Positions 10,582 through 45,215 of a stretch of DNA of 64,000 nucleotides are shown here, piece after piece. The stretch comes from Thermodesulfobacteriota bacterium. Lineage in GTDB: Bacteria > Desulfobacterota > Desulfobacteria > Desulfobacterales > SURF-7. The first letter of the stretch is position 1. Every line of letters begins with the position of its first letter. The notes beneath the pieces were generated by a model. It was not told where the DNA came from. It did not search any database and was given only the letters and a program-made list of their open reading frames with translations. The stretch lies in the NCBI GenBank assembly GCA_049320885.1, contig JBMORA010000027.1, positions 67,221 through 131,220 on the forward strand, in the 5' to 3' direction. The translations under genes and the position numbers were made by a program.

Positions 10582-10664
10582 GGGTAGACTCCAGTCGTTT
10601 GCAGGTTGCCCGCCCTTCCTCCTCGCATCGGGACTGCCATCATTCTTACCCGTGAAAATACTTG

Positions 10665-10728
10665 TTGACAAGAAAAAACGCAATCATTATAGAGCGTCAT
10701 AACTGTAAAGTGTTGCTTTTCACTTTAC
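10665..10728 (+). promoter_or_regulatory. sigma70-like promoter plus perfect palindromic operator upstream of the oxoamine synthase gene
   Basis: TTGACA-17 nt-TATAGA (10665-10693); GTAAAGTG-N8-CACTTTAC (10705-10728). Confidence 0.65.
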
Positions 10729-10793
10729 TTTAATGCCTGCCCGAACGCATGATGGGAAAGGGCAAACCGCAACGATGAGAGGAGAATGATCGT

Positions 10794-12536
10794 ATGACCG
10801 GAAGAAACCCTTTTTTGCAGGAAACCTTCAAATCCAGACCGGAAAGATGGGAACCCGCCGGGGAAGAACCCATCGAATCCAGGCTTCGGATCGGCGCAAC
10901 GGAAACCATCGGCCTGGAAGTGACCTGCATCTCGGAAACCGGCATGGAAGGCCGACCGGTTTTCAAGATCCCCGAATCCGTCCGCGGGAAGGAAATCACC
11001 GAAATCCAGATCCGCTGCAACGGCCACCGGCTGTCCTTCGGTCCGGGGAAATTCGCGCCGGGCGGCCTCCATTCGGCGGACAGAACCGTCGGCATCTGTT
11101 TCGACGCCAACCAGTCGGACCAGCTTGCCCTCCTCAGGCCCCATCTGCGTCCGCGCAGCTATGTCACCCATGAACTCCGCGACGAGGTGCTGGAAGCCAT
11201 GACCACTTCCATCAATGGCTTGAAGCACTCCCTGACCGACTTCTACCGCATCGACTCCCCGGATGTCTTCGAGAAATGCAACCGCTTTTACGAAATGATC
11301 AAGGATCTGCAAAAAAACAAATATTATCAAGGTCTCTATCGCGTGACGCTGACCTCCGGCATCGGCCCCCGGATCACGGTATTCAATCCCTCCCGCAGAC
11401 GGGAGGAACCGATGATCTGCTATGATTCCAACAGCTATCTGGGCCTCCACCGTCATCCCCGGGTGCTCGCCGTCGTGGACCGGACCCTGCGGGTGGCCGG
11501 ATACGGCACCCCCAGTTCCCAGCTGCTGAGCGGCACGAACAAATACCTGCGGACCCTGGAGGAAACCGTCGCCGCCTTCCACCAGCGGGAGGACTGCATC
11601 ATCTTTCCCACCGGATACGCGGCCAATATCGGGGCCATTTCAGCGCTGATCCGGGACCGGGATCTGATCGTCCGGGACCGCTTCGCCCACAACAGCATCC
11701 GCAACGGGACGCTGTCCGCCCGTTCGCCCCATGTCGCCGTCTATCCCCACCAGGACTACGACTCCCTGGAGGAGATCCTCTCATCGGCCGGCGGCAATCC
11801 CGAAATCATCGGCAAAATGATCGTCACCGACGCGGTTTTCAGCATGCACGGCAGCGTCGCGGATCTGCCCAGACTTGCGGCGCTCTCCAAAAAACACAAC
11901 GCCCGTTTGATGCTGGATGAGGCCCATTCCATCGGCGTGCTGGGGGAGACCGGGCATGGGATCGAGGAACACTACGGCATGACCGGGGCGGTGGATGTGC
12001 TGATGGGAACCCTCAGCAAGACACCCGGCTCCCTGGGGGGCTATGTGGCCGGCTGCCGGGAACTGGTGACCTATCTGCGGCATTACGCCCAATCCGGCAT
12101 GTTCACGACCTCCCTGCCCGCGGCGATCTGCGCGGGAGTGACCGAGGCGTTTCATGTCATGGAAGAAGAGCCCGAGCACCGGGAACGCCTCTGGAACAAC
12201 ATCCGCCGGCTCACCGCCGCCATCCATGACGCAGGGCTGCTGGTGTCCCCTCCCCGCAGCAGCATCATCACGGTTTCCGTGGGCGAGCTTGGCCTTCTGT
12301 GGCTGGTCAGCCAGGAGCTTTTTCAAGCCGGCATCAAGGCGGGCAGCGTCACCTACCCCGCGGTGGCCAGGGGGGAATCCATACTCCGGCTCAGCGTCAC
12401 CGCTCAGCATACGGCGGAAGACATCGATTACACGGCCGGGACCCTGAAGGCCATCGGCCGGAAATACGGCCTGTGCGGAAAAAGCCTCGCGGAACTCAAC
12501 GAAATGTCCGAGCGGTACCGCCTGGGCGCCGATTAG
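10794..12536 (+). CDS. PLP-dependent alpha-oxoamine synthase (BioF/KBL/SPT family) with N-terminal PilZ-like domain
   Basis: SNSYLGL, TGYAANIG, DRFAHNSI, DAVFSMHG, DEAHS, GTLSK (PLP lysine), ILRLSV; about 190-aa N-terminal extension. Confidence 0.8.
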   Translation: MTGRNPFLQETFKSRPERWEPAGEEPIESRLRIGATETIGLEVTCISETGMEGRPVFKIPESVRGKEITEIQIRCNGHRLSFGPGKFAPGGLHSADRTVGICFDANQSDQLALLRPHLRPRSYVTHELRDEVLEAMTTSINGLKHSLTDFYRIDSPDVFEKCNRFYEMIKDLQKNKYYQGLYRVTLTSGIGPRITVFNPSRRREEPMICYDSNSYLGLHRHPRVLAVVDRTLRVAGYGTPSSQLLSGTNKYLRTLEETVAAFHQREDCIIFPTGYAANIGAISALIRDRDLIVRDRFAHNSIRNGTLSARSPHVAVYPHQDYDSLEEILSSAGGNPEIIGKMIVTDAVFSMHGSVADLPRLAALSKKHNARLMLDEAHSIGVLGETGHGIEEHYGMTGAVDVLMGTLSKTPGSLGGYVAGCRELVTYLRHYAQSGMFTTSLPAAICAGVTEAFHVMEEEPEHRERLWNNIRRLTAAIHDAGLLVSPPRSSIITVSVGELGLLWLVSQELFQAGIKAGSVTYPAVARGESILRLSVTAQHTAEDIDYTAGTLKAIGRKYGLCGKSLAELNEMSERYRLGAD

Positions 12537-14200
12537 AAGTCCGACAGATTCTGATAGAACATCACCGTCGCGGGGCTGGTGACATTGGGATCCGTGACCA
12601 CGTTGATGCAGGCCGGCTTGCCGGAAGCCAGCGCGCGTTGGAGGGCTGGGGCCACGTCCTCGTCCCGGGTCACCAGTTCCCCGTATCCTCCCAGCCCCTC
12701 CACCATTTTTTCATAATGCCGCATACCCAGCTCCGCGCAGGTGCAGCGGTCGTGTCCGATGCTCATTTCCTGGGAATGCTTGATCATGCCCCAGGCGCAG
12801 TCGTTGTTGACCACGCAGATGATGGGAATGTTGTGGCGCACCGCCGTGTCGAACTCCATGCTGTTGAAACCGAAGGAACCGTCTCCGTTCAGCACCACCA
12901 CCGGCTTGTCCGGATGGGCCAGCTTCGCGGCGATGGCAAAGGGAATGCCCGTCCCCAGGCAACCCAGAAGGGCGCCGGCCGGAACCTGAACCCCCGAAGG
13001 ATGCCGCGACATGAAACCCGCCAGTCCGTAATAACTGGTGTCGCCGCCGTCGGCGACGTAAAAGGCGTCCTGCCCGAAAACCTCCATGATGCGGGCCACC
13101 AGCCGGATGGGATGAATCGGATCCGACGGCGTCGAACGCTTTTCCAGCTCCGTGGTCATGAACGCCTGGTAGGCGTTGCGCAACCTGCCGATCCAATCCC
13201 CATGCTCCCGGGCCTCAACCCCGGCGAGCAGACGGCCGAGGACGTCGCCGCAGTCCCCCACCAGCCCCACGTCAGCGCTGCGGTTGCGGTCGATTTCCTG
13301 GGGATCGATGTCGATGCGGACGACCTTGGCCTGGGGAAACAACCTGCCGGATTGCAGCACCCAGTTGAAGCGGATGCCGGCGGCCACGATCACATCCGCC
13401 TGGGGCAGCCCGGTCATGACGCCCGTGAATCCGCCGTCGCTGATGGACAGCGGATGATCGTCCGGCAGGACCCCCCGGCCGTTGTTCAGGAGGCAGAAAG
13501 GCATGCCGGTTTTTTCCAGAAAGGCCCGGGCGGCATCCCCGCAATTGCTCATGCCCACGCCGCTGCCGCCGAGAAAGATCGGTTTCCGGGCGTTGTTGAT
13601 GAGCTCCGTTGCCCGGCGCAATTCGGTTTCATCCGGATGGACGGCGGTTTTATGGCTCCGGCGCGGGGGGATGTTGACGCTCTCCGTATCCACCTGGACG
13701 AAGAGAATGTCCGGCGGCAGTTCCAGAAAAACCGGACCCGGCCTTCCGGTGGTGGCTTGGCGGAACGCCAGGGAGAGGTATTCCGGAATGCGTCTGGTAT
13801 CGAAGCAGGTGGCGTTCCATTTGGTGACCGGTTTGATCATGTCGATCTGGTTCATCTCCTGCAGCGCCCCGGTGAGATCGTCCCGCAACGGGTGACGGCC
13901 GCACAATACCACCAGGGGGGCATTGTCCAGGTAGGCGTTCACGATGCCCGTCAGGGCATTGGTGAATCCCGGACCGGCCGTCACCAGGCAGACGCCCGGC
14001 TCGCCTTTGTAGACCGACCAGGCGTGCGCCATCATGGCCGCCGCCTGCTCATGACGGACATCAATGGTGCGGATGCCGTATTCGGTAAAACCGTCCAGAA
14101 TGTTTTCGATGTGCCCGCCGGACAGGGTGAAGACCGTCCGCACGTTTTCGACTTCCTTCATGTACTTCGCCACCAGATGTCCGCCGTATATTTTTGCCAT
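12533..14200 (-). CDS. Thiamine diphosphate-dependent enzyme, 2-hydroxyacyl-CoA lyase / ILVBL / benzaldehyde lyase-like
   Basis: LSGGHI, RHEQAA, TAGPG, GALQE, GRPGPV, GCLG, GDGSFGF...NN ThDP motif. Confidence 0.8.
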   Translation of the reverse strand: MAKIYGGHLVAKYMKEVENVRTVFTLSGGHIENILDGFTEYGIRTIDVRHEQAAAMMAHAWSVYKGEPGVCLVTAGPGFTNALTGIVNAYLDNAPLVVLCGRHPLRDDLTGALQEMNQIDMIKPVTKWNATCFDTRRIPEYLSLAFRQATTGRPGPVFLELPPDILFVQVDTESVNIPPRRSHKTAVHPDETELRRATELINNARKPIFLGGSGVGMSNCGDAARAFLEKTGMPFCLLNNGRGVLPDDHPLSISDGGFTGVMTGLPQADVIVAAGIRFNWVLQSGRLFPQAKVVRIDIDPQEIDRNRSADVGLVGDCGDVLGRLLAGVEAREHGDWIGRLRNAYQAFMTTELEKRSTPSDPIHPIRLVARIMEVFGQDAFYVADGGDTSYYGLAGFMSRHPSGVQVPAGALLGCLGTGIPFAIAAKLAHPDKPVVVLNGDGSFGFNSMEFDTAVRHNIPIICVVNNDCAWGMIKHSQEMSIGHDRCTCAELGMRHYEKMVEGLGGYGELVTRDEDVAPALQRALASGKPACINVVTDPNVTSPATVMFYQNLSDF

Positions 14201-14237
14201 CCCGTCCTCCTTATGGTGTCAGCGCCTGCCTGTCTGC

Positions 14238-14594
14238 CTACAGCACCAGTTTGATCCCGTTTTCAAACCACTGGGCATAAACGCTCATGCCCGCCACCTT
14301 CAATTTACCCTCCGCCGCGGCGTTGAAGGAGGCATCCGGCCGCTTGTCGGTCATGACGGAAAAACCGGTGGCGGCGTCTTTCCAGATCAACGCCACGTCG
14401 AATTCCCGGCAATCGCCGGCCGCGGACGAAACCCGGCCCCTGTTGAAAATGAACTGCCGGGCCCGCAGCCCGTCGGCGGTTTTGATCAGCACCCGGGCGT
14501 TGATCTTGGCAATGTATTTCCGGAAGGCCCGGTTGGTGATGGACGCCGTTTTCAACGCGACGAACAAAACAAACAACAGAAACGAAAAGCGCAT
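14238..14594 (-). CDS. SCP2 (sterol carrier)-like small protein
   Basis: F.F..G.V, DVALIWKD, AAAEGKLKVAG pattern typical of the SCP2 fold; co-directional between the dehydrogenase and the ThDP enzyme. Confidence 0.55.
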   Translation of the reverse strand: MRFSFLLFVLFVALKTASITNRAFRKYIAKINARVLIKTADGLRARQFIFNRGRVSSAAGDCREFDVALIWKDAATGFSVMTDKRPDASFNAAAEGKLKVAGMSVYAQWFENGIKLVL

Positions 14595-14632
14595 ACATTT
14601 CTCCTTCCCGCGACAGCCCTTGAACCCGGTCG

Positions 14633-15853
14633 CTAGGGAAAGGCCACCACGGTCTTCATGGCCTTGTGTCGCCCCTTGTTCAGATTGACCTCGATCATCC
14701 GCCGATATTCCTCCAGCCGGAACCGGTGGGTCACCAGTTTCTCCGCCCGGATTTTCCCGCTCCGCATGAGCTCGAGCGCGATTTCGAACGCATGGGCTTC
14801 CCCGTTCCGCCAGACGTTCCGGCCGTAGGCATAGACCCCCTTGACGGTTTGCAGTTTCAGCCAGAGCGGCGTCAGATCCAGCCGGACATCTCCGCCGATG
14901 CCGACGACGCTGAGGGTCCCCATGGCCGACAGCAGCCGCATGGCCAGATTCAGGGTGGCGGCGCTGCCGACGGTGTCATAAATCCGGTGAAAACCGCCCA
15001 TGAGAATTTCCTTCCCCAGCATGGGCTTGTAAACGGCGGCGCCCGTGACGCGCGCCGTCCTCTCATATACTGCCGCCGCGGGGATCAGGCCTTCGGCGCC
15101 GGCCTCCTCCGCCAACCGTCCGGCGAAGGGGGAAGGCTCGATGACGAATATCCGGCAGGCGGCCGACAGATTGCGAAGCGACTGCACCATCAGATTGCCG
15201 ATGACGCCGCCGCCGATGACCAGCACCGTCTCCCCGCCTTCCGGCTTGTTGTCCAACACCGCCTGCAGGGCCACGGCCAGCGGCTCGGTCATGACCGCCG
15301 CTTCCGGACTGAGCCCCGGCGGCACCGGGAACAACTGGCTCTTATGCGCCACGAGAAACGGCGCGAATCCGCCGTTCACCCCCCGGTTGATGCCCAGGAA
15401 CATCCCCGGCGGCAGATCGCCGTCGGCGAAATGAGCGCAATTGCCGGACCGCCCCGCCCGGCAGGCCGGGCATGCGGGCGATATTCCCCTGGTCTCGCAG
15501 CCCAGAATCGGATTCACCACCACCCGGTCGCCCGGTTGAAAGGCGCCGGCCCCGCTCCCTGCCTCCACGATTTCGCCGACGATTTCATGCCCGGTGATGC
15601 AGGGAAACGAGGTGAAAGGGGAAGCGGTGGGCGAATCGTGCAACAGGATCAGGTTCAGGTCGCTGCCGCAGAAACCGCAATAGCGCGTGCGGATCTTGAC
15701 CCAGTCCGGTGACGGGAGAACCGGCTCCGGAATGTCCGCAAGACGGATGGTGGCCACGGGGCTGTTGTAAAAAACCGAACGACCGAAAATCCCGCGAAGA
15801 ATTTTGGCCGCGATAAAGCGGGGAACCGTCACATGGAATTGAAGCGCTTGCAT
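14633..15853 (-). CDS. Zinc-dependent medium-chain alcohol dehydrogenase
   Basis: CGSD, GHE, structural-Zn cysteines (C...CPAC...C), EPLAVA, GGGVIG; GGAGG RBS. Confidence 0.88.
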   Translation of the reverse strand: MQALQFHVTVPRFIAAKILRGIFGRSVFYNSPVATIRLADIPEPVLPSPDWVKIRTRYCGFCGSDLNLILLHDSPTASPFTSFPCITGHEIVGEIVEAGSGAGAFQPGDRVVVNPILGCETRGISPACPACRAGRSGNCAHFADGDLPPGMFLGINRGVNGGFAPFLVAHKSQLFPVPPGLSPEAAVMTEPLAVALQAVLDNKPEGGETVLVIGGGVIGNLMVQSLRNLSAACRIFVIEPSPFAGRLAEEAGAEGLIPAAAVYERTARVTGAAVYKPMLGKEILMGGFHRIYDTVGSAATLNLAMRLLSAMGTLSVVGIGGDVRLDLTPLWLKLQTVKGVYAYGRNVWRNGEAHAFEIALELMRSGKIRAEKLVTHRFRLEEYRRMIEVNLNKGRHKAMKTVVAFP

Positions 15854-15896
15854 GTTTCCTCCGTCCATCCATCGCCGGAACAACGGCGCCGTCCTG

Positions 15897-15925
15897 TATT
15901 TACGAATTATTATTCATCTTGTCAA
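15897..15925 (-). promoter_or_regulatory. sigma70-like promoter of the dehydrogenase operon with a palindromic operator in the spacer
   Basis: TTGACA-17 nt-TAAATA on the minus strand; ACGAAT-TATT-ATTCAT at 15902-15917. Confidence 0.55.
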
Positions 15926-16065
15926 TATTTTTTATTATATTATTTTTCATATAGTTATTGATTTTTTATGAACTTTTAATCACATTATTATGATTGACAA
16001 ACCGGACCGGACTCTGATACTCCCGGGGCATTGAAAAATCCTTCTCATTCAGGAGCGCATCCGTC

Positions 16066-16674
16066 ATGACAGCCGTACGGACCCCGCGGCAACAGCGCGG
16101 GAAGGAAACCAAAAACCGGATCATCAAGGCGGCCTTTCACTTGTTCGCCCGCAAAGGCATCCACGGCACCAACTCCCGGGAAATCGCCGAAAAGGCCGGC
16201 GTATCCATCGGCAGTTTTTATTCCTACTTCAACAACAAAAAAACCCTGCTGCTGGAAATGCTGGAGGATTACACGGACCGCCATTACGCCAGGATATGGG
16301 ACCAGATAGGCAGCTACGCCTTCGAGAGCCTGGGAAGACAGGACATCAAGACGATTATCGGGAATGTCTTCGCGGCCTATGATATCTCGCCTGAATTTCA
16401 CCGCCAGACCCACGCCCTGCGCTACTCGGATCCGGACATCAACCGCATTTACGACCGGGAGCGCAGGCGCGAGGTGAAACAGATTAGCGCCATCCTGGAG
16501 AAAAACAGCGGACGCCTGCGGATTGCCGATACGGCAGCCGTCGCCGTCATCATTCAGAACGCCGTGGAAAACGTGGCCCACACCGCCAGGTTCATCGGCA
16601 CGGATATCGAAGACCACCGGCTGGTGGATGCCCTGGCCGATATGATTTACAGTTTCGTCATTGGTGACGAATGA
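16066..16674 (+). CDS. TetR/AcrR family transcriptional regulator
   Basis: RTPRQQRGKETKNRIIKAAFHLF...EIAEKAGVSIGSFYSYFNNK; AGGAG RBS. Confidence 0.92.
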   Translation: MTAVRTPRQQRGKETKNRIIKAAFHLFARKGIHGTNSREIAEKAGVSIGSFYSYFNNKKTLLLEMLEDYTDRHYARIWDQIGSYAFESLGRQDIKTIIGNVFAAYDISPEFHRQTHALRYSDPDINRIYDRERRREVKQISAILEKNSGRLRIADTAAVAVIIQNAVENVAHTARFIGTDIEDHRLVDALADMIYSFVIGDE

Positions 16675-17957
16675 AACCGGGGCGGAATTTCCTGATCCCG
16701 CTGTTGCTGGCGATCCTGGAGGCGACATCGGCCGGAGCGGATGCGGATCTTGCCCGCTCCTACCTTTCCGGCAGGGAAAACCAATCGCGGAAGGCTCCGC
16801 CTTCCCCCGGACTGCTTCGAAGTTATGAGGCCGGCGACAATGCGGCTCTCCCTCCGGACCTTGCCGATGTCGCGTTTGTTTACGACAATGCGCTCGTTCT
16901 TCTGGCCTGCATCCAGGACAAAAGCCCGGAAAGCAGGGCTCGCGCCGGAAACATCGCCGCCGCCTTCGTCCATGCCATGACCCATGACCGCTATTTTCAG
17001 GACGGAAGACTGCGGAACGCCTATTCGGCCGAATGCCTGATCGATCCGCAAACCGGCAAGACCCGCCTTCCCGGATGGTGGGCGGACGGTGAAGCCCGAT
17101 GGCGCGAGGACCGCTACCAGGCCGGCACCCACACCGGCAACATGGCCTGGGTGGTCATCGCCCTGTCCCAGTACCACCGCCGATTCGGCGGACGGCAGTA
17201 CAAGGAGGCCGCCGTCCGGCTCGGAAACTGGATACATGCCCACACGAACGACAACGGCGACGGATATCGGGGGGGGTTCGAGGGCTGGGAGCCGGATCCG
17301 GAACGCCTTCCATGGAAATCAACCGAGCACAATATCGATGTCCACGCCGCGTTCACCTGGCTCCACCGGATCACCGGCGACAACGCCTGGAAACAGCGGG
17401 CCGCCTCCGCCCGGCGGTTTGTGAACGCCATGTGGTCCGGAGACCATTTTCTCATCGGCACGAAACCGGACGGCAGAACCCCCGAAACCGGCAACCCCCC
17501 GCTGGATGCCCAGGCCTGGGCCGTGCTGGTTTTCGGCGGCCACGGGAAAGCCCTGGCGTGGGCCGAACGCAATTGCCTCGTCCGCCGAAACGGTCAGCTG
17601 GGATTTGACTTCAACACTTATCGAAATGGAATCTGGCACGAGGGAACCGCGCACATGGCCCTGGCCTATCGCGCCGTCCGGGCCTGCGACAAAGCCGCGC
17701 CGCTGCTGGATACGCTGCGGGCCGCCCAATCATGCGGCCCGCTGGGGGTTGGGAAAGGGATCGCGGCGGCAGCGCCGGATCACATCGTGGATACCGGGCT
17801 CGGCTGGAGATACTTCCCCTTGCCGCATATCGGCGCCACCGCCTGGTATGTCCTTGCGGAAATGGGAATCAATCCGTTTCTCGGTTCCCGGCTGCCCTGT
17901 CCTCCGGCGGACGCTCCCGTCACGTCAGCACGCCGTATCGATCCTTGTACGCCTTGA
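16671..17957 (+). CDS. Secreted alpha/alpha-barrel glycosidase-like protein of unknown function
   Basis: N-terminal signal peptide; YDNAL, GNMAW, WKSTEHNID, LDAQAW, WHEGTA motifs; ATGA overlap with tetR. Confidence 0.55.
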   Translation: MKPGRNFLIPLLLAILEATSAGADADLARSYLSGRENQSRKAPPSPGLLRSYEAGDNAALPPDLADVAFVYDNALVLLACIQDKSPESRARAGNIAAAFVHAMTHDRYFQDGRLRNAYSAECLIDPQTGKTRLPGWWADGEARWREDRYQAGTHTGNMAWVVIALSQYHRRFGGRQYKEAAVRLGNWIHAHTNDNGDGYRGGFEGWEPDPERLPWKSTEHNIDVHAAFTWLHRITGDNAWKQRAASARRFVNAMWSGDHFLIGTKPDGRTPETGNPPLDAQAWAVLVFGGHGKALAWAERNCLVRRNGQLGFDFNTYRNGIWHEGTAHMALAYRAVRACDKAAPLLDTLRAAQSCGPLGVGKGIAAAAPDHIVDTGLGWRYFPLPHIGATAWYVLAEMGINPFLGSRLPCPPADAPVTSARRIDPCTP

Positions 17958-18471: not shown

Positions 18472-20124
18472 TCATTCCATGAGTTGCGTCATGTTCAGCT
18501 TGACGGCCGTCCGGACCAGCTCGGGATCGAATTGCCTGCCGGCGTTCACCTCGAGTTCCCGGAGGGCGTCGGCCATGGACATCTTTTTCCGGTAGGTGCG
18601 CTCCGACGTCATGGCCACCAGGGCATCGACGATGGCAAAAACCCTGGCGCCCACGGGAATCCTGTCGCCGCTCAATCCATTGGGATAACCGGTTCCGTCG
18701 TAGTGCTCATGATGATGCAGCAGCACTTCCCGTTCCTCGGCAAAAAAATTGAACAGCCCGGTCAGATCGGCCAGCATGCCGGGATGCGATTCGATTTCCG
18801 ATCGTTCCGTATCCGTGAGATCCCCCTGTTTGTACAGAATCGAATCGGAGAGCAGGATCTTGAAGCAGTCATGAAACGTAACCGCCCGCTTCAGCGAATC
18901 GATCAGGGATGGGGACAACCCGAGCTTGTCGCCGAAGAGGTTCAGGTATTGGGTTACCCTGCGGTTGTGATTGCGGAAGCGGTCGCCGCCCAGATCCCTC
19001 ACCAGCAGCTCCAGGGATTCCAGGGATGCCTTTTTGGTTTTTTCCAGAATGGCGCTCAGGTTCTCCTTCAGATAGCGCAAATCCTTCTGCCCGGCGGCCT
19101 TTTCACCCTGGCCCGCGACCCCTTCCGATCCTTTTTCCTGGTATATGGTCACCCGGTTGCGACCCTCGGCCTTGGCCTGGTACAACGCCTTGTCCGCCAG
19201 AGCGATCATGTCCCGGGGCCGCTCCGGCCGGTGCATGACAAGGGATGCGATGCCGATGCTGACGGTCACCGTTATCTTGCGATCGCCGTCACGATACACC
19301 CGTTCCTCGCTCCATTTCCGGATGGCCTCCCCCCGCGCCATGGCACCCTGGATGTCCGTATGGGGAAGCAGCAGCAGGAATTCCTCGCCGCCGTACCGAA
19401 AGGCGTAGTCGGTGCGCCTGGTGAAGCGTGCCAGGCAACCGCCGAACTCCCTCAACACATAATCGCCGCAGGCATGGCCGCAATAATCGTTGATCTGCTT
19501 GAAGAAATCCAGGTCCATGAGCAAGCAGGAGAAATCGGTGCGATACCGTTTCGCGCGGGCGAATTCCTGGGAAATGATGTTCTGCAGATGATGGCGGTTG
19601 TAGAGCCCGGTGAGGCTGTCGCGAATCACCAGCTCGCTCAATTTCCTGTTTTGCTTCTCGATGATTTCCTTGGATTTGTTCAACTCCGCCAGTTTCTGGC
19701 GCAATTCGCTGCTGGCGCTTTCCAGATCCTTTTTCTGCCGGTGAAATGACAGAAACATGTTGACCTTGTTCCGCAGAATCGCCGGATTCAGGGGTTTGAA
19801 CACATAATCCACCGCGCTTGAGTCGCAGCCTTGAAAATCGCCCTGGTCATGGTGATGGATGTCGGTGATGTAGATAATCGGCAGGCGGCCGGCGGCCTCG
19901 CTGCCGCCGACCATATCGGCGGTCCGGCAGTCATCCTTCTGGTTGGCCTGGGCATCCATCACCAGCATGGCGAAATCATGGGCCAGGCTCAGCATCATGG
20001 CTTCCTTTGCCGATGTCGCCTTCATGATGATCAGATCCGGGCGCCGCAGCATTTCCTCCAGAGCCGCCAATTGCTCCGGCCGCTCGTCCATCAACAGGAT
20101 TTTGATTGTCTCGTTCGTCTGCAT
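18472..20124 (-). CDS. REC-GGDEF-HD-GYP protein (diguanylate cyclase / phosphodiesterase)
   Basis: N-terminal REC; DSLTGLYNR, DLDFFKQIND, RRTD I-site, RYGGEEF; FHD, HHEHYDGTGYP, ERTYR. Confidence 0.9.
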   Translation of the reverse strand: MQTNETIKILLMDERPEQLAALEEMLRRPDLIIMKATSAKEAMMLSLAHDFAMLVMDAQANQKDDCRTADMVGGSEAAGRLPIIYITDIHHHDQGDFQGCDSSAVDYVFKPLNPAILRNKVNMFLSFHRQKKDLESASSELRQKLAELNKSKEIIEKQNRKLSELVIRDSLTGLYNRHHLQNIISQEFARAKRYRTDFSCLLMDLDFFKQINDYCGHACGDYVLREFGGCLARFTRRTDYAFRYGGEEFLLLLPHTDIQGAMARGEAIRKWSEERVYRDGDRKITVTVSIGIASLVMHRPERPRDMIALADKALYQAKAEGRNRVTIYQEKGSEGVAGQGEKAAGQKDLRYLKENLSAILEKTKKASLESLELLVRDLGGDRFRNHNRRVTQYLNLFGDKLGLSPSLIDSLKRAVTFHDCFKILLSDSILYKQGDLTDTERSEIESHPGMLADLTGLFNFFAEEREVLLHHHEHYDGTGYPNGLSGDRIPVGARVFAIVDALVAMTSERTYRKKMSMADALRELEVNAGRQFDPELVRTAVKLNMTQLME

Positions 20125-21308: not shown

Positions 21309-23036
21309 TTACGCCGCGGCCCAGATCAGCGTCAGGAGTCCCGCCAGCACGAAAGTCGATTCCACCAGAAACGCCAGCCGGATGCCGCCGGCCAGGGCTC
21401 CGCGCTCATGGGCCAGGATAATGCCGAACATGACGGCGGGAATCATTCCCAGAACAATGCCCAGCGAGGAGATGAAACCGAGCCCGACCGCGGCGCAGAG
21501 AATCACCGCGAGCCCCATGGCCGTGTATTTCAGCAGGGTTCTGGTGCGCTCCTCCCCCAAAAAAAGCGGAATGGTTTCCCGGCCGACGATCCGGTCCCCC
21601 TGCATATCGAGGATATCGAAAAAGGCCGTCCGGATGAACACCATACCTGCGGACCAGACAAGGGCAAAAACGGTGGCCGGATACATGCGGCCGCTGATGG
21701 ACAAGGCCGGCAGCAGGGCGGTGACGATCCCCCAGGCCAGGACAATGAGCACGGTCTTGGAGCCCGGGATGTCCTTGATGGAGCGGAAGGCCCTGGTCGA
21801 ACGCCAGCCCGACCAGATCCGGACATTATACAACCCCCCCAGAACGCTCATGGCCAGCAAGACGAAAAAGGGCAGCGGTCCCATGGTGAAACCGATGGCC
21901 AGCCCGGCCGCGCCGGCAGCGGCGGCCATCAGGGTGAGGGCCACATGATGGTCCTCGTAAAAAGCGGCCCGATCCGGATCGTTATACCGGTCCGATTGAC
22001 GTCCGGTGAGATGGTTGAAGGTGTGCATGGAAAGGATGTACAGGCATGCGATGAGCAGGGGCAGCAACTGCTCGCCCATGTTCTGGAGCTGGGTCGCCGT
22101 ATAGGTCAGGCTTCCGGCCCCCAGGGCGATATAGAGGTTGCTGAACAGCAGCAACCGTTGCAGCGGATACAGCATCCGCCTTCGGCGCCGCTCTTTTTCA
22201 AAGGCCAGGGATTCCACCCGGCGGAAAACCCGGTTGATGATCCAGTTGGGCGTCGACGCACCCGCCGTGATGCCCACGGAGCGAATCGACGCCAGACATT
22301 TGGGATCGATATCCTCCTCGGTCTCGATGTGGTAGGCCGGCTTTCCGGTCTCCCGGGCCACTTCCGCCAGGCGTTGCGTGTTGCCGCTGTTGTATCCCCC
22401 CACCACGATCATCGCATCCACGGTTTGCGACAGCCGGTCGACCTCCGCCTGGCGTTTGTCCGTCGAATCGCAGATGGTGTTGAATATCCGATACTGGGGG
22501 TGACGGCGGGCGGCCCAGTCTTTCACCTGCTCGAAAAACTTCGTGTTCTGGGTGGTCTGGGCCACGATGATGGCCTGCTCGAACACCGGAAGGGCGTTCA
22601 GGGCCTCCAGGCTGTCGACCACATGACCTTTTTCTCCCGCGTAGCCCAGCAGCCCCACCACTTCCGGATGATCCCGATCTCCGATGATAATGACGGCAAA
22701 ACCGCGCACAGCATGCTTGCGGATGATGGTCTGGACTTTAATGACCCGGGGGCAGGTGGCGTCGATAACCGTAAAGCCGGCGCGGGTCAAGGTTTCCTTG
22801 GTTTCCGGCGGAACGCCGTGGGCCCGGATCAGGATGGTGCCGTTGCCTTTTTCCGGAATCCGGTCCACGACGAAAATCCCCTTCTCCTCCAACAGCCTCA
22901 AGACCTGAGGATTGTGGATGAGGGGACCGTAGGAACAGATCGGCTCGCTCGTATTGTTGGAGGCGTCCAGGGACATTTCCACGGCCCGTCGAACGCCCAT
23001 GCAGAATCCAGCGGTTTTGGCGACAACGATTTTCAT
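21309..23036 (-). CDS. ispH: 4-hydroxy-3-methylbut-2-enyl diphosphate reductase fused to a C-terminal UbiA-family prenyltransferase-like membrane domain
   Basis: AGFCMGVRRA, LIHNP, DATCP, HPEV, QTT, NTICDST..RQ, GITAGASTP; then multi-TM domain with DILDMQGD. Confidence 0.9.
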   Translation of the reverse strand: MKIVVAKTAGFCMGVRRAVEMSLDASNNTSEPICSYGPLIHNPQVLRLLEEKGIFVVDRIPEKGNGTILIRAHGVPPETKETLTRAGFTVIDATCPRVIKVQTIIRKHAVRGFAVIIIGDRDHPEVVGLLGYAGEKGHVVDSLEALNALPVFEQAIIVAQTTQNTKFFEQVKDWAARRHPQYRIFNTICDSTDKRQAEVDRLSQTVDAMIVVGGYNSGNTQRLAEVARETGKPAYHIETEEDIDPKCLASIRSVGITAGASTPNWIINRVFRRVESLAFEKERRRRRMLYPLQRLLLFSNLYIALGAGSLTYTATQLQNMGEQLLPLLIACLYILSMHTFNHLTGRQSDRYNDPDRAAFYEDHHVALTLMAAAAGAAGLAIGFTMGPLPFFVLLAMSVLGGLYNVRIWSGWRSTRAFRSIKDIPGSKTVLIVLAWGIVTALLPALSISGRMYPATVFALVWSAGMVFIRTAFFDILDMQGDRIVGRETIPLFLGEERTRTLLKYTAMGLAVILCAAVGLGFISSLGIVLGMIPAVMFGIILAHERGALAGGIRLAFLVESTFVLAGLLTLIWAAA

Positions 23037-23064
23037 TTGGCTCGCATGCCGGGAGCGGGGCGCA

Positions 23065-23256
23065 TCATTCCAGCGGCTGCAGATACACGTTGTGATCCAC
23101 CAGGGCCAGGGAGTGGATCCGGGCCTTGATGAATTTCTGCTCGCCGAAAATACTGACCAGACGCACACCGTCTCCTTCCGGTGAAACGGTGTCCACCGAT
23201 TCCATGATCAGCTGATTCCCCTTTTCATTCATCAGATAGGCATTCGCTTCGCACAT
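23065..23256 (-). CDS. CooT family nickel-binding protein
   Basis: MCEANAYL...MESVD...SIFGEQK...LVDH pattern with Cys2 and a C-terminal His. Confidence 0.8.
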   Translation of the reverse strand: MCEANAYLMNEKGNQLIMESVDTVSPEGDGVRLVSIFGEQKFIKARIHSLALVDHNVYLQPLE

Positions 23257-33823: not shown

Positions 33824-36800
33824 TCAATCGATTTTCCAGATGATCTGCTGGGCACCGCCCGGCGGGCCGGGTATATCGGAAGACGCGCCCTCCGCTCCGG
33901 CCTCGTCCCCCTGTTCCCCTGCGCCGACAATGCGGCCGCCGGCGCTCACAAAGGCGGCTGCATGCCCTTCGCGGGTGATGATGCGCACGCCGGAGGGAAT
34001 GCGGCTGTTCTCCACAAGGGTATGGGTATCCTGCACATTGTTCGCATCGGTGCCGTCTAGCACGGGTTCGTGGACCCGGTCCATGTTCATGGCCGCCTTG
34101 CCGAAGGAATATTCCAGGCCGTAGATCCGGGCGTTGCCCTTGGGGTTGCAGGGATCGCCGAACACCGGTTGATAGGTTGTGAAAAAGACATTGCTGTAAA
34201 ACAGCGTGACCGCGCTCAGCACCATTTCCGCAGTATGGTCGGTTCCGTCCTGGGTGCAATCGCCGATCCCGCCCATCACCTTGTACCAGCCCCGGGCCTT
34301 CTCGCCGGTGACCGGATAGTCGGTATCGCCGTACATGATATCGTGGAGTTCTTCCTTCGCGGTATTGTCGGCGGCTCCCAGGCTGCCGTTCAGATCCACG
34401 TCGGCATAGTCGTCCAGCTCGTCGCAGGTCAGGTTCAGCAGGTCGGTTTCATCCGCCGGAGTGCCGGTATCGGCCACCGCGTAAAAGCGGTTGTCGTAAC
34501 TGGGAATATACCGGGGATGCTCCCGGTCGCCGGTTCCGTAGTAAAGCATGGGGTAATCGGTCCAATCGCATCCGTAATAGGATACATCCGGGGAGTAGAA
34601 GGCCTTGCGCCCCTTGTCCGCCGGATTCAGGGCCGCCGGGCCGCTGAGGGCCTCCACCGCATTGTCCTGATTGGAGCCCGGGTTGGCGCTGAACACCCGG
34701 GAGAGCAGCCACTGGTCGGCCCGCAAGTAATCATGGGACACCTTCCAGACCGTGCCGTAAATATCGGTGATATAGACCAAAAGGCCCTGGTTGGTCTCGA
34801 TCACCGTGGGGTCCGCGGGAAAACAGAATTTCATGTCGTTATCCGTCTGGCTCGTTCCCGTCAACAGATCCGCCGCATCATAGGTGGCTTTAAACCGCAG
34901 ACTGCCGTCGGACAGGTTCACCACGAAAATGCCCCGGCCCTTTCCGTTCATGGTCGGGTTATAATAGTCGTAACTGCCGTTCCGATTGGCGTCGGTGTAG
35001 GTTTCGGTCCCGGAATTGAAAACGCCGTTGCCGTTGTCGTCCGTCCAGGGCTCCGGGTAATTGTCCTCCTGATTGTCATACCCGCCGCCGAACACCACCA
35101 CGTCGGTGGTGTTTCGGATGTTGGCGCCGGTCTGGATCCTGGCCACCATGGGTTTGGACCAGCTATGGCCGAGTTCGTGGAAATCCCCGCCCACGCCGCC
35201 TTGAATCCGCCATTTGACCGTCCAGTTGGCCGGGTTCGGATCGGTCACGTCCAGGGCCCAGTAACTGCGGCCGCCCCGGCGCTGGCCGAAAACCAGGGTC
35301 TGATGGGTGTATTCGCCGCTGTCCATGACCCCGTCGCCGTTGCTGTCGTGGAACGTCCGGGAACGGTGCACCACCGCCGATCCGTCCAGATAGTATTTAT
35401 GCACCGACGGATCGGCAAAATTCTTCAGCTCGCCCAACAGGTCGCCGGGAATGAAGGCCCAGACCTCGCTGCCCGGGGGATAGACAACCCCGCCGATGGT
35501 GGTGTCGGCGCTGGAGGCGGAATCCGCGTCATCCACGAAGACGTGAAGCATACCGTCATTGGCGCCGATGACCAGTAGGCGGTGCAGGATGGCGAAATTC
35601 TCATCAAAATAATCGACCACCAAGGGTTCGGAATGAATCATGTCGCCCAGAATCCACTCCCGCTTGCCCAGGGGTTTGCCGTCGGTGGCCTCCGAGTAGG
35701 TTCCCGGGTCGCCGTCGGCGTCGCCGGCTGAGTAGGTATAGCCATACACATAGTTGATGATCTTGTCCCGCAGGTTGTTGTTGGCCACCCCGAGATCTTC
35801 CTTGGTGATGGTGTCCGCCTGGCCGGCGTTGCCGTCCCGAAAGAAGCGCACCATGTCCGTGGATACGGCAGGATCCTTGCAAGTATATATATTCCGGAAA
35901 TCGTAATACGGTCCGGCGGCCATGCTGACAGTGGAAAAATTCATCATCAGAACTTCGCCCGCGCCGCCGGCGCTCACGTCGCCGCCATCCGTTGTCGTGG
36001 ACCAGTGGGATACGGAATTGGCTTTGAACTGCCCGCTGCATTCGGTGGCATTGTCGCCATTTTGATCAACCACCACCCATTCCGGATCGGGGCGGCCGCA
36101 ATCGCTTCTGTCCTTCCATTGCAGGCCGTATTTTTTCAGGTTGCCGCGCCAGCTTTCGCCTTCCTCCGGCAGCGAAAAAGCCATGTACAGACTTTCGCCG
36201 CTCTGGGTGCGGTTACTTTGGTCCACGGACACCACCGGCACCGTGAAGGATACGGCGGATGATATGACCGTTCCCAGACGCTGAAAGGCGTTGATCAGCT
36301 GCGGCCGGTTGTAAGCCGAAAGATAGACACCGTTACCGGAAGCGGCGACATCGCCCAGCAGGGGATTGTCTAGGCCGAAGCCGATGACATGCAGGGAATG
36401 TTTCCAGCTGGCCTGGTGAAACATCCAGTGGGCCGCGTCATCGGCATGGTCGCCTCCCGGCCAGTTGTCTCCGTCACCGTAACTGGCACAGCCGCCATAG
36501 CCGGATGCGCAGAAACCGAAAGTCGGATTCGGATACGCGGCGGCCTCGGCATCATTGATCCGGCTCCAATCGGAATCCACGGTGGTATCGCCAGCGGCGG
36601 AACCATCGGTCATCAGCAGAAGGTAATTCCGGGCGCAGGCGGCGCCATCCCTCCTTTCGTCCAGATACAGCTTGTCACTGTTGTAGGCATCCTGGATGGC
36701 GGCGCCCATGGAACCGCCGCCGGCCTGGAGACCGGATATCCGCTCCATGATCGTGTCGAAAGCCGTGCCCAGGGGGGCCAGAACGGCGGCGCCGCTGATC

Positions 36801-37888
36801 CCGCCGGATATGGTCAGACCCCAATGGATGGTGCCCCGGTTTTCCGCCACCACCTGTCTTATGACGGCCTTGACGGTATCCAGGCGGGATTGAATCTTCC
36901 CTCCCGCACCTTCGCCGACACAGTAGCTGCTGCGCCAGGCCTTATACCGGTCCACGGGGTAGGCCCCTTCCGCGGTACAACCTTCCAATTCAGGAGCAAC
37001 ATGAAAATCCTCCACCAATTTGAGAAAATTGATCCAGTTTCCAGTGGCAAACACATAGATCCGCCTGCCGGCGCATAATTCGGCGCCGTCGCTTTCGGCG
37101 GTGAATTCCAGGGCTGCTCCGGATTTTTCGAACAGACCGGAAAAATAAAACCCACCGGCTTTGAGCATACCCCGGAAACCCCGATCGAGGGATTCCCCGG
37201 TTTCGGATTCCCTGATCACCTCCGTGGCTGCAATATCCCGGAAATTGGGCAAGACCGCCCCCTTGACCGTCGACGGCACGGCGACGGAGTTGCCGTCCAT
37301 ATCCCGGAGTTCGCCGGTGGGAAACAACACCTTGCCGTCGGCGTTGGTTTCGATGGTGTCCATATCCGTCACATCCCACCAGACATTGGCGCGGCTCCTT
37401 GCCGGAATGACGGCGTGACGCAAGAACGGCAGACGCTTGTTGGCGACCGGGTCGGTTTCCGAACCGATGTTTTGCAAGACATCGCCGATGACGGCCGCAT
37501 GGCGCTGCCCGCCGTCGGAATCCGTATAGGGTACAATCCGGTACTCCACGCAGGTGCTCACCAGATATATCCGGTCCGGGTCCAGACGGTCGTAGTCCGC
37601 GCCTTCCCCATCGCTGTCCCACCAGGAGGAGCCGTTGCGACCGTGGTTTTCGTCATAGGCCAGGTTTTCATCGATCATCCATTTCATGAGGGCGCCGTAC
37701 TGAATGGCTTCATCATATACAGGCCAGCTCATGCTGCCGGAAGCATCCACGACCATCATGGCGTTGTTCTTGACGGAGGACCGATGGACATCCAGATCCT
37801 CCGCCGCGGCATCGAAAAAAATCACCAATGGAATCAAGCAGCTCACAAGCGCTGTCTGCATTTTTCTTTTGGCAATCGCATTCTTCAT
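33824..37888 (-). CDS. pilY1: PilY1/PilC type IV pilus tip adhesin (second copy, pilY1-2)
   Basis: Signal peptide, vWA MIDAS DASGS, LMTDG, WRGNLKKY, LGDMIHSEP, GANDGMLHVF, EVWAFIP, beta-propeller C-terminus. Confidence 0.88.
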   Translation of the reverse strand: MKNAIAKRKMQTALVSCLIPLVIFFDAAAEDLDVHRSSVKNNAMMVVDASGSMSWPVYDEAIQYGALMKWMIDENLAYDENHGRNGSSWWDSDGEGADYDRLDPDRIYLVSTCVEYRIVPYTDSDGGQRHAAVIGDVLQNIGSETDPVANKRLPFLRHAVIPARSRANVWWDVTDMDTIETNADGKVLFPTGELRDMDGNSVAVPSTVKGAVLPNFRDIAATEVIRESETGESLDRGFRGMLKAGGFYFSGLFEKSGAALEFTAESDGAELCAGRRIYVFATGNWINFLKLVEDFHVAPELEGCTAEGAYPVDRYKAWRSSYCVGEGAGGKIQSRLDTVKAVIRQVVAENRGTIHWGLTISGGISGAAVLAPLGTAFDTIMERISGLQAGGGSMGAAIQDAYNSDKLYLDERRDGAACARNYLLLMTDGSAAGDTTVDSDWSRINDAEAAAYPNPTFGFCASGYGGCASYGDGDNWPGGDHADDAAHWMFHQASWKHSLHVIGFGLDNPLLGDVAASGNGVYLSAYNRPQLINAFQRLGTVISSAVSFTVPVVSVDQSNRTQSGESLYMAFSLPEEGESWRGNLKKYGLQWKDRSDCGRPDPEWVVVDQNGDNATECSGQFKANSVSHWSTTTDGGDVSAGGAGEVLMMNFSTVSMAAGPYYDFRNIYTCKDPAVSTDMVRFFRDGNAGQADTITKEDLGVANNNLRDKIINYVYGYTYSAGDADGDPGTYSEATDGKPLGKREWILGDMIHSEPLVVDYFDENFAILHRLLVIGANDGMLHVFVDDADSASSADTTIGGVVYPPGSEVWAFIPGDLLGELKNFADPSVHKYYLDGSAVVHRSRTFHDSNGDGVMDSGEYTHQTLVFGQRRGGRSYWALDVTDPNPANWTVKWRIQGGVGGDFHELGHSWSKPMVARIQTGANIRNTTDVVVFGGGYDNQEDNYPEPWTDDNGNGVFNSGTETYTDANRNGSYDYYNPTMNGKGRGIFVVNLSDGSLRFKATYDAADLLTGTSQTDNDMKFCFPADPTVIETNQGLLVYITDIYGTVWKVSHDYLRADQWLLSRVFSANPGSNQDNAVEALSGPAALNPADKGRKAFYSPDVSYYGCDWTDYPMLYYGTGDREHPRYIPSYDNRFYAVADTGTPADETDLLNLTCDELDDYADVDLNGSLGAADNTAKEELHDIMYGDTDYPVTGEKARGWYKVMGGIGDCTQDGTDHTAEMVLSAVTLFYSNVFFTTYQPVFGDPCNPKGNARIYGLEYSFGKAAMNMDRVHEPVLDGTDANNVQDTHTLVENSRIPSGVRIITREGHAAAFVSAGGRIVGAGEQGDEAGAEGASSDIPGPPGGAQQIIWKID

Positions 37889-38047
37889 GGGTACGGCCTT
37901 TCCGAGGATGTCGCTACCCCCTTATCGGACAACGAGTTGAAAATAATCATGGGATCAACCAGCAGACCGGGGAACAGCCGCCGATTCATGCCGGGTCGAT
38001 CCATCCTGCCCGCTATTTTTGGAAGGTGGGTAAAAAACGATGAAACG

Positions 38048-38121
38048 GTAACAAGCTCTTTTCAGGTCGGACGCCTGAAAACCTCGGCGGAACATATGGA
38101 TACAGGATGTGAACTTGTTAC
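38048..38121 (-). other. Nested inverted-repeat element upstream of pilY1-2
   Basis: Outer 11-nt arms GTAACAAGTTC/GAGCTTGTTAC (one G-U pair on the minus strand) enclosing a perfect 8-bp hairpin TTTTCAGG/CCTGAAAA. Confidence 0.5.
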
Positions 38122-38220
38122 GCGACTGTCGAAATGCTGCCTGAACGGTGGGATAATACGTCCATTCGCTGTATCGCCATCCTTACTTCATTTTTGCATT
38201 CATTGCAACAAGCACCGGGT

Positions 38221-38258
38221 AAAAAAAAAAGGCCGCGCCCATGTCTGGACGCGGCCTT
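38221..38258 (-). terminator. Intrinsic terminator ending the fimT-pilWVX-pilY1 operon
   Basis: GGCCGCG/CGCGGCC hairpin followed by U10 on the minus strand (A10 at 38221-38230). Confidence 0.85.
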
Positions 38259-38316
38259 GTTGTTGAAGGTGTCTTTTTAGGCAATCAGGTCGATACCGGT
38301 CGCCATTGCCGTTCCG

Positions 38317-38733
38317 CTATTGGGGAATTTCCGGCGACCATGCCTCGCGAGCCCCCGGGACCACTTTGATGACCTCAATTCTACGGGCATGCGGACGGTT
38401 GTTCAAGGGCATTTCATAGTCGATCCAGGCCCGGCATGGATAGGGAAGTTCCGCGAGGGGAATCTCTTTCAACACCGGTACCGGATTCCCATCGGGAATG
38501 AACACGCGCGTCGACGTATAGACCACAAATTGCTGCGTCTCGGACTCGACACAATCCGGGCGCTTCTTGACAATGGTGACTTCCACGCGATTTGTCTGGA
38601 CGTACCTGTCATCGGTCCTCACCAATTCATCCTCCTGTGCCAGGATCAGACACGGCATGATGAGCAACATCAAGGAGATGATCCAAATCCGGCAGGGGAA
38701 GTGAACTGTCCTTTTTTCATTCTGGTTCGCCAT
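38317..38733 (-). CDS. Small secreted protein in the PilY2 position
   Basis: AGGAG RBS, signal peptide ending ILA|Q, about 100-aa beta-rich domain with two Cys, directly downstream of pilY1. Confidence 0.65.
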   Translation of the reverse strand: MANQNEKRTVHFPCRIWIISLMLLIMPCLILAQEDELVRTDDRYVQTNRVEVTIVKKRPDCVESETQQFVVYTSTRVFIPDGNPVPVLKEIPLAELPYPCRAWIDYEMPLNNRPHARRIEVIKVVPGAREAWSPEIPQ

Positions 38734-38780
38734 TGTATTCTCCTTCTGGCCGAAAATAATGTCTTTTACCGGCATGGTCT

Positions 38781-44062: not shown

Positions 44063-44067
44063 GATGA

Positions 44068-44511
44068 CTACCTTTGGCCCAGGGCTACAACATTGGTTAG
44101 GGTTATATCGCGATCCTTGAAATTCTCGGTTATGGTCAGACGGACCGTTTTGGTGTCGTTCATCAATTCATTGTCCGTCACCGTCCAGCCGGAACTGAAA
44201 CGGGTGGCGGTTTCGCCGGCTTCATCCACCAATCCGTCGTCGTCGTTGTCGATCCAGTCCGCGGTGGCCGCCGCCGGATTGGTCGTTACAATGGAGTCGT
44301 AGGGCTGACTGATGATCCGCTCCATCTGTTTGGCCGCGACATATGTCAGGTCGGTTACCACTTGGGCCGTGACATTTCCGCTGGTGGAGGCGATCTGCAT
44401 CGAAGCAACGGCCAGGACGCCGATGGAAAAAACCGCAATGGCGATGAGCACTTCTATCAGGGTATATCCGGACGCTGCATCCTGGCGGTGGTTGTACTTT
44501 TTTCTGTTCAT
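44068..44511 (-). CDS. pilV: Type IV minor pilin PilV
   Basis: SG|YTLIEVLIAIAVFSIGVLAVASMQ prepilin motif. Confidence 0.82.
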   Translation of the reverse strand: MNRKKYNHRQDAASGYTLIEVLIAIAVFSIGVLAVASMQIASTSGNVTAQVVTDLTYVAAKQMERIISQPYDSIVTTNPAAATADWIDNDDDGLVDEAGETATRFSSGWTVTDNELMNDTKTVRLTITENFKDRDITLTNVVALGQR

Positions 44512-44522
44512 GGCGCTCCTCC

Positions 44523-45194: not shown

Positions 45195-45215
45195 GCGCCT
45201 GTCCTTTATCCTATA

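Follow-up and report, generated by a model that had tools for sequence, protein, structure and literature searches.

A predicted PilZ-fold domain fused to an alpha-oxoamine synthase of an undescribed clade in a Desulfobacterales bacterium

Introduction

Pyridoxal 5'-phosphate (PLP)-dependent alpha-oxoamine synthases (AOS) and PilZ domains are each known kinds of protein. Among the former, the closest described relatives of the gene considered here are the Bacteroidota-type serine palmitoyltransferase (SPT) of S. multivorum (PDB 3A2B/8GUH; NF047600) and the AOS domains of PigH and RedN, which use serine and an acyl carrier protein (ACP)-bound pyrrolyl-beta-ketoacyl substrate (PMC11188435). The position that gates the amino acid has been placed at V79 of ThAOS, equivalent to Ser102 of SPT, and the V79A and V79S variants of ThAOS accept Ser, Ala and other small residues (PMC11906848). 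PilZ domains are known from YcgR, MapZ, Alg44 and BcsA; canonical binding of cyclic di-GMP (c-di-GMP) is reported to require the motifs RxxxR and [D/N]hSxxG, and PA2989 is reported to bind c-di-GMP despite a replaced D/N in the second motif (10.1101/2020.02.11.943704, 10.1101/814665). Here we describe a gene that carries both parts, a PilZ-fold domain followed by an AOS core, in a 64,000-nucleotide stretch of DNA from a Desulfobacterales genome (Thermodesulfobacteriota bacterium, contig JBMORA010000027.1, positions 67,221 to 131,220; hereafter the window, whose own numbering is used throughout; Table 1).

The initial annotation of this DNA, made from its letters alone, proposed such a fusion and knew of no characterised example. 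Nor did we find a paper that joins the two, judging the literature by titles and the beginnings of abstracts, with subscription journals mostly outside the scope of the search. Two surveys of PilZ proteins never use the word 'aminotransferase' in their main text; such architectures may be listed in their supplements (10.1101/2020.02.11.943704, 10.1101/814665).

A complete AOS core on the SPT/PigH side of the superfamily

The AOS core recognized in the initial annotation is complete. Residues 207–560 match Pfam PF00155 (E 8e-43), the best solved relative is S. multivorum SPT (E 8e-63; Foldseek TM-score by target 0.95), and profile, model and Foldseek agree on PLP fold type I and on the structure of the AOS subfamily. 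The catalytic His, Asp, His and Lys and the substrate-binding Asn and Arg are all in place, as N213, H299, D375, H378, K409 and R532, whose roles we take to be those usual for AOS.

Around these residues the active site has a signature unlike that of any reference AOS in our alignment. The usual SR(L) loop reads S241-S-Q-L, as had been noticed at the outset, and S242 aligns with ThAOS V79 and SPT Ser102. This gate residue, Ser in our protein, is Ala in 113 and Ser in seven of its 120 best database hits, which form the family discussed below and are 47–59% identical to it beyond a single close orthologue, P0002. D211, H219, Q243 and K515 are absent from the SPT, BioF, KBL, ALAS and PigH rows aligned, while H352 is common to PigH; a salt bridge between D211 and K515 is possible.

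The likeness to S. multivorum SPT comprises ~32% sequence identity, the catalytic set, Ser at the gate and a large tree group in common. In contrast to SPT, the fusion protein has S-S-Q for G-S-R, H352 for E, the new residues K515 and D211, and an extra N-terminal extension with the PilZ domain ahead of it. The PigH and RedN domains are 35% identical to it over 405 residues, N-terminal extension included, share the SM-H-G motif and take a weak sister position, but they have ACP domains where this protein has PilZ, and their gate loop differs (G-C-R in PigH, S-A/S-Q in the family); neither pig genes nor the ACP-AOS architecture of a pig/red cluster is found at our locus. On plasmids, the best matches come from the AOS genes of prodiginine-type clusters (35–38% identity). 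Two such clusters lie on plasmids of Methylocystis iwaonis (L093) and Thioclava sp. (L094), the latter flanked by luxI/luxR-type genes.

The protein passes no curated NCBIfam cut-off. Given as bits over cut-off, its best score is to BioF (TIGR00858, 320/426.45), with KBL models at 275/460 (NF005394), 243/493 (TIGR01822) and 276/535 (TIGR01825), SPT models at 284/640 (NF047600), 270/500 (NF047599) and 203/670 (NF047603), and CqsA at 171/428 (NF005526). Among solved structures a profile of the family finds S. multivorum SPT first (366 bits), with KBL at 332, BioF at 257 and CqsA at 161 bits.

Phylogenies agree with this placement. The family forms its own clade in a FastTree of 213 rows (support 99), and in an IQ-TREE analysis of 46 of those rows (LG+G4, no mixture) it is supported at 100/100 within a 37-row group, likewise at 100/100, that includes SPT-like, PigH, FAAL-ACP-AOS, PilZ-AOS-GNAT and other PilZ-AOS rows and stands apart from BioF and the KBL-related rows. 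Reference labels are those of NCBIfam, except that PigH was inferred from gene order, and group names were given once the first tree had been seen. Approximately unbiased (AU) tests reject a grouping of the family with BioF and with KBL (p 0.0019 each). Grouping with SPT, which is not sister in the best tree, is not rejected (p 0.094; only two of the six SPT-like rows pass the SPT cut-off), and grouping with a second PilZ clade is borderline (p 0.052). In the best tree the family and PigH lie on one side of a branch, weakly (63/40). The initial annotation had called for this comparison and had proposed a dedicated enzyme, other than an ordinary BioF or KBL; both expectations are borne out, with the enzyme lying towards the sphingolipid synthases. 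By alignment and tree, then, the family is a clade of its own on the SPT/PigH side of the AOS superfamily. For the lineage of our gene, sequence and model show an AOS fold with its catalytic residues, purifying selection and a position separate from both BioF and KBL, and the protein is most likely an active PLP-dependent AOS of an undescribed clade.

A PilZ barrel ahead of the core

The reading frame opens upstream of the N-terminal domain, as initially annotated. We accept the start at 10794 because the AGGAG and the ATG are kept together in the orthologue, because the orthologue (79% identity over the match) has the same frame and is also 580 residues long, and because 78 of the 120 best hits are at least 530 residues long. 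A public contig, which may be the source of this DNA, covers the entire window with no difference. The conserved AT-rich block further upstream holds a plus-strand TTGACA and a minus-strand promoter-like site, and a promoter search called the minus-strand site only (one found against 0.7 expected by chance, a weak result). The gene's composition (GC content 0.62, third-position GC 0.79) is similar to that of its neighbours and gives no indication of recent transfer. An Rfam search of the window found no riboswitch, a tRNA being the sole match.

The N-terminal domain of this protein alone has no match in Pfam or NCBIfam, and its assignment comes from structure. The predicted model (mean pLDDT, the per-residue confidence, 85.6) has the six-stranded beta-barrel, C-terminal helix and conserved hydrophobic core of the PilZ fold. 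In an exhaustive structure search (VIA) its 14 top matches (Z 7.5–11.2) are all titled as, or known to be, PilZ proteins; the best is the PilZ domain of YcgR (Z 11.2, root-mean-square deviation 2.7 Å over 106 aligned residues), and the first unrelated row follows at Z 6.2. Foldseek and the Atlas agree, and Pfam PilZ is matched at E ≤ 1 by 35 of 68 family members (best E 2e-5). The modelling and Foldseek comparison thus uphold the proposal of a PilZ barrel at residues ~12–118. The ~190 extra residues that had been noted before the core are real, but PilZ and a short tether make up only about 120 of them. The barrel ends near residue 119, and residues ~145–200 are the AOS's own N-terminal extension, common to PigH-type enzymes.

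The full-length model is predicted with a pTM (overall fold confidence) of 0.90. When PilZ and core were predicted as separate chains, the docking score was 0.41 and that of the best control 0.00, with runs agreeing in at least 86% of contacts and a partner pLDDT of at least 80. The docking mark used is reached by 116 of 157 solved pairs and two of 215 mismatched pairs; of these, only 18 of the 157 solved pairs reach it with a score no higher than 0.60, as do both mismatches. These predictions lend weak support to a PilZ barrel docked on the AOS core.

A putative family pocket that appears eroded in this lineage

The two PilZ motifs had been described as degenerate, SxxxR and CxSxxG, and they read so, with neither canonical motif present in the protein. 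The two departures differ in extent. Among the 74 of 78 long family members with residues at both motifs, RxxxR occurs in none and x-R-x-x-R in all, so that the first reading is family-wide. In contrast, [DN]xSxxG is found in 59 of the 74, and Cys at its first position is specific to our lineage. The full set of R15, R18, [DN]xSxxG and an Arg at position 89 is kept in 58 of the 74 members, ours not among them. Because these residues are conserved in a domain only ~20% identical between members, they point to a real, non-canonical ligand site in the family.

In our gene and its orthologue position 45 is Cys and position 89 is Pro or Gly, so that D/N45 and R89 are both lost, while R15, R18, S47, G50 and F103 are retained in both genomes. 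The barrel-plus-helix fold, the hydrophobic residue at 46 and F103 are shared with YcgR, MapZ, Alg44 and BcsA; unlike these, the family lacks RxxxR, our lineage lacks D/N45 and R89, and the output is a PLP enzyme rather than a glycosyltransferase or motor. Gene and orthologue agree at 58 of 108 residues of PilZ and at 300 of 355 of the core, and dN/dS is ~0.34 for PilZ, ~0.11 for the core and ~0.06 for residues 120–205 (simple pairwise counts at dS ~0.9). The PilZ domain, evolving about three times faster than the core, is kept but relaxed in this lineage, and is still under purifying selection. Nucleotide gating of this copy appears doubtful, since gene and orthologue have lost both the D/N at position 45 and R89. 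The suggestion that this copy is signal-regulated is weakened by the state of the pocket, from which the conserved D/N45 and R89 and the canonical first Arg are all missing.

Distribution of the fusion

A PilZ domain is present in 77 of the 120 best hits, a count that is partly circular as the N-terminal profile was built from 68 of them. Forty of the 120 lack it, and starred branches of the tree force at least four changes, so that PilZ is optional in the family, although a wrongly called start may account for some of the short forms. Members with a named source belong to Deltaproteobacteria, Bdellovibrionota, Myxococcales/Polyangiaceae and Riflebacteria, with one cyanobacterial label. Of the 351 members of the nearest Atlas cluster, which is commonest in Bdellovibrionota, 35% have PilZ. 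T185, T187 and E204 co-vary with the domain (100/94/99% with PilZ, 57/38/38% without), but we could not separate this link from kinship, there being only four independent pairs, with four rows dropped.

In contrast to the breadth of the family, the full-length gene itself is rare in the host's own phylum: it was found in two of 61 genomes of relatives, one of 401 of the phylum and two of 401 of the class (overlapping samples), in none of 96 genomes of another class and in neither the one further genome searched nor a scan of viral sequences. Contigs of three further runs gave no more than short pieces, and no RNA data set that holds the gene was listed, which bears neither way on its expression. 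Three further matches in genomes of the class start at profile positions 137–154 and belong to other AOS, and a scan of genome contigs gave one orthologue and one distant AOS. A metagenome scan with a general motif gave at least 80 AOS loci at 32–40% identity, with the N-terminal domain in none of those listed.

Beyond the clade, 25 of the 63 long representatives scanned (of 147 new) match PilZ; in 21 of these the domain is N-terminal and outside the family, and 15 of the 21 match RxxxR...[DN]xSxxG. Elsewhere in the wider group the AOS is joined to ACP, FAAL-ACP, GNAT or FemAB-like domains, and in other relatives to REC or STAS; among them we noted AOS joined to PilZ plus GNAT/FemAB, to FemAB plus a C-terminal PilZ, to REC or to STAS (P0130, P0139, P0147, P0152, P0208, P0140, P0186). 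On several occasions, then, signalling inputs have been joined to enzymes of this group. Searching for still longer fusions gave only generic FAAL/polyketide synthase (PKS)-AOS proteins. Three family members or sisters (P0124, P0125, P0232) have degraded active sites, and two of these, P0124 and P0125, have lost the catalytic Lys and kept PilZ and may be pseudo-enzyme receptors.

A lone gene between two synteny blocks

The fusion gene stands between a divergent MerR-type regulator and a convergent thiamine pyrophosphate (TPP) enzyme, 118-residue protein and Zn-dehydrogenase, in the same order as in the orthologue's genome. In G001, a genome of the same genus that is 99% complete, the two flanking blocks are found on separate contigs, the enzyme is missing and there is only one AOS match; therefore the neighbours do not need the enzyme, which is a lone passenger between two synteny blocks. 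We considered a functional link to the flanking genes, including the REC-GGDEF-HD gene, and found it unsupported, as both blocks occur in G001 without the enzyme. Among the flanking genes scanned we saw none for a sensor kinase, GNAT, ACP or PKS, and no ceramide synthase or reductase gene adjoins the fusion gene; co-location of bCerS/CerR with SPT is described as not required (PMC11334938). The remark that no bio genes lie nearby holds among the window open reading frames scanned (19 distinct and 29, two shared; a subset of those in the window).

Table 1. Features of the fusion gene and its surroundings, in window positions.
Feature	Position	Strand	Evidence or remarks
Conserved AT-rich block	10642..10693	.	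Between divergent merR-type gene and fusion gene; conserved in orthologue
TTGACA	10665-10670	+	Within AT-rich block
AGGAG, Shine-Dalgarno-like	10780..10784	+	9 nt upstream of ATG; conserved in orthologue P0002
PilZ-AOS fusion gene, 580 residues	10794..12536	+	Pfam, structure and profile evidence; orthologue P0002 79% identical
PilZ-fold domain, residues 12-119	10827..11150	+	Model, Foldseek, structure search (Z 11.2 to YcgR PilZ); dN/dS ~0.34
Motif 1, S14-R-P-E-R18	10833..10847	+	Family-type x-R-x-x-R, canonical first Arg absent; RxxxR in 0/74
Motif 2, C45-I-S-E-T-G50	10926..10943	+	Cys at family D/N position; [DN]xSxxG in 59/74
Conserved YVTxEL tether, PigH-like N-terminal extension and hairpin of AOS, residues 120-205	11151..11408	+	Lowest dN/dS, ~0.06
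AOS catalytic core, residues 206-560	11409..12473	+	N213, H299, D375, H378, K409, R532 kept; dN/dS ~0.11
Family signature D211, H219, S241-S/A242-Q243, H352, K515	within 11409..12473	+	Alignment
Codon of catalytic K409	12018-12020	+	Alignment
Block of TetR, Zn-dehydrogenase, 118-residue protein and TPP enzyme	12533-16674		Conserved in four other genomes
Zn-dehydrogenase	14633-15883	-	41% identical to L011:1529-2755
428-residue protein	16671-17957	+	Behind tetR; no Pfam or NCBIfam match
REC-GGDEF-HD hybrid	18472-20124	-	Intact GGEEF; 6 kb from fusion gene; also in G001
IspH (LytB) fused to UbiA-family prenyltransferase domain	21309-23168	-	Conserved in orthologue's genome
Minor-pilin cluster	33824-45791	-	With 1555-residue PilY1 and 1354-residue vWA protein

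The downstream block looks like one for lipid alpha-oxidation. Its TPP enzyme is nearest to PRK05858 and 2-hydroxyacyl-CoA lyase models, below cut-off, and its 118-residue protein, which has no match, is presumably SCP2-like. The dehydrogenase to which the Zn-dehydrogenase is 41% identical comes immediately after a free-standing AOS gene of the wider group; eight other dehydrogenases in AOS loci are 23–28% identical. The Zn-dehydrogenase of our window could act as a 3-keto reductase, but it also occurs in G001, G014 and G016, which lack the fusion enzyme. The 428-residue protein behind tetR recurs in G001 and G002 (53–61%). Elsewhere in the same order, two AOS genes lie one beside a B12 radical-SAM gene (L113) and one next to a UbiA-like gene and a gene that we read as lipid-kinase-like (L114); these are possible sphingolipid loci.

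The host genome has 18 GGDEF matches and 25 PilZ matches besides ours, and from this gene content appears to use c-di-GMP widely. One GGDEF domain (G000:C28:41607-42080, L130/L131) reads AGDEF and has Ser at the position that we read as the Hypr specificity site, for which a Ser-for-Asp rule has been given (PMC9140294), and Val at the usual Asn, as in six of the eight loci that match the pattern. This Ser-type GGDEF is a candidate cGAMP (cyclic GMP-AMP) synthase in this family of sulfate reducers, where it occurs in eight of 18 genomes, six of them without the PilZ-AOS enzyme.

Proposed function and alternatives

We tentatively propose, with a probability of roughly 45%, that the gene encodes an active AOS that joins Ser or Ala to a fatty acyl thioester to make a lipid-like aminoketone, and that its docked PilZ domain no longer reads a nucleotide in this lineage. 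The enzyme would act as a homodimer and condense a small amino acid of the Ser or Ala type, proposed because of Ser242 at the gate, with a fatty acyl thioester that, going by the chemistry of the AOS, is probably medium to long and possibly ACP-bound; loss of CO2 would leave a lipid-like alpha-aminoketone of the 3-keto long-chain-base type. The PilZ barrel would be an optional control module, docked through the YVTxEL tether, and most members of the family probably use it to bind a cyclic dinucleotide, in a non-canonical pocket made up of R15, R18, D/N45, S47 and R89. In our two-genome lineage, with that pocket eroded (C45, P89/G89), the enzyme would most likely be nucleotide-blind, and either always on or controlled by a protein partner or by transcription.

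Several points weigh against this proposal. The SPT loop and motif residues G-S-R, SM-E-G and F-x-N-P are absent from the protein, its SPT scores are far below the cut-offs (284/640 bits), and the substrate could be of quite another kind, given the new residues D211, H219, K515 and G517. The reference rows of the trees were drawn from hits to the family and include no CqsA, no alpha- or beta-proteobacterial SPT and no cysteate transferase. The GNAT/FemAB domains of ten fused relatives, a set of queries without true bCerS/CerR, have no match in the host genome at E ≤ 1e-3, which yields no candidate partner for N-acylation. Binding of a nucleotide by this PilZ may also persist, given the precedent of PA2989 and the retention of R15, R18, S47 and G50.

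The alternative that survives best, though we consider it unlikely, is that the same enzyme is still gated, by monomeric c-di-GMP or 3',3'-cGAMP in a remodelled pocket. The five residues retained in both genomes, F103 included, and the purifying selection on PilZ are consistent with this, as are PA2989 and the GGDEF and PilZ complement of the host with its Ser-type GGDEF; the nearest Atlas cluster is commonest in Bdellovibrionota, and Hypr enzymes are reported from Bdellovibrio, myxobacteria and Geobacter (PMC9140294, PMC6456294). However, three pocket positions (the first Arg, D/N45 and R89) have been lost together, all 23 of the 25 other host PilZ domains that were checked have RxxxR (a loose pattern), and the Ser-type GGDEF has Val for the usual Asn and is found mostly in genomes without the enzyme.

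A somewhat less likely alternative is that the product is a diffusible signal, as with CqsA/LqsA and with its sensor elsewhere, or a PigH-like metabolite made from an ACP-bound acyl group, the gene having been orphaned from a larger module; this would be compatible with either state of the PilZ domain. A lone, patchy gene suits a signal synthase, and the prodiginine-type plasmid matches, the shared extension and SM-H-G motif and the weak PigH branch fit the second variant. Against it, CqsA, which shares the AOS fold and a possible signal product, is much more distant in profile scores, among the most distant of the solved AOS; the flanking genes scanned include no kinase and no ACP or PKS gene; the host's 7TMR-DISM and cyclase genes are found on contigs other than that of the fusion gene and occur in enzyme-less G001 too; and the PigH gate differs from that of the family.

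More speculative still, and in our estimation a long shot, is the idea that the whole clade consists of second-messenger-gated amino-lipid synthases, with PilZ, through its invariant x-R-x-x-R together with D/N45, S47 and R89, re-tuned to a ligand other than dimeric c-di-GMP, such as the 3',3'-cGAMP of deltaproteobacteria-like lineages. The ligand would switch on a new aminoketone chemistry set by D211, H219, H352 and K515; our gene would then be either responsive or de-regulated.

That the gene is a decaying or catalytically silent relic seems very improbable. Relatives P0124 and P0125 have lost the catalytic Lys, and our lineage has a long stem (0.35–0.45) and private changes near H299 (N300, R303, N304) and at A347. 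On the other hand, K409 and all other catalytic residues are intact, the core evolves at a dN/dS of ~0.11 at dS ~0.9, and the host's own BioF also reads H-N-S-x-x-N-G at the H299 motif. Hardly credible at all is the reading of the protein as a plain BioF or KBL whose extension is incidental: BioF and KBL share the AOS fold and catalytic residues, TIGR00858 gives the best NCBIfam score and some databases label relatives 'glycine C-acetyltransferase' or '8-amino-7-oxononanoate synthase', but every score is below cut-off, the AU tests reject both groupings, the gate is Val in 14 of 14 KBL-related rows and never in the family's 120 hits, and the host has a separate BioF, above cut-off, between bioA and bioD on another contig (C31).

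Implications

Our analysis makes the PilZ-AOS fusion known as a large family, and to this the locus adds a defined clade with active-site and PilZ signatures of its own, together with a natural member whose pocket is eroded. Within the family, members whose pocket is intact, the eroded one described here and those lacking PilZ form a natural series. The distinct active-site signature marks the clade as a candidate source of new chemistry and biocatalysts. Tempering this, the present copy stands as an orphan and its sensor is doubtful. According to PMC11334938, sphingolipid-like lipids are tied to Desulfobacterota through co-abundance only. If the picture drawn here for the family is true, a PLP-dependent, carbon–carbon bond-forming enzyme with a built-in cyclic-dinucleotide receptor would tie second-messenger signalling directly to the synthesis of lipids or signals.

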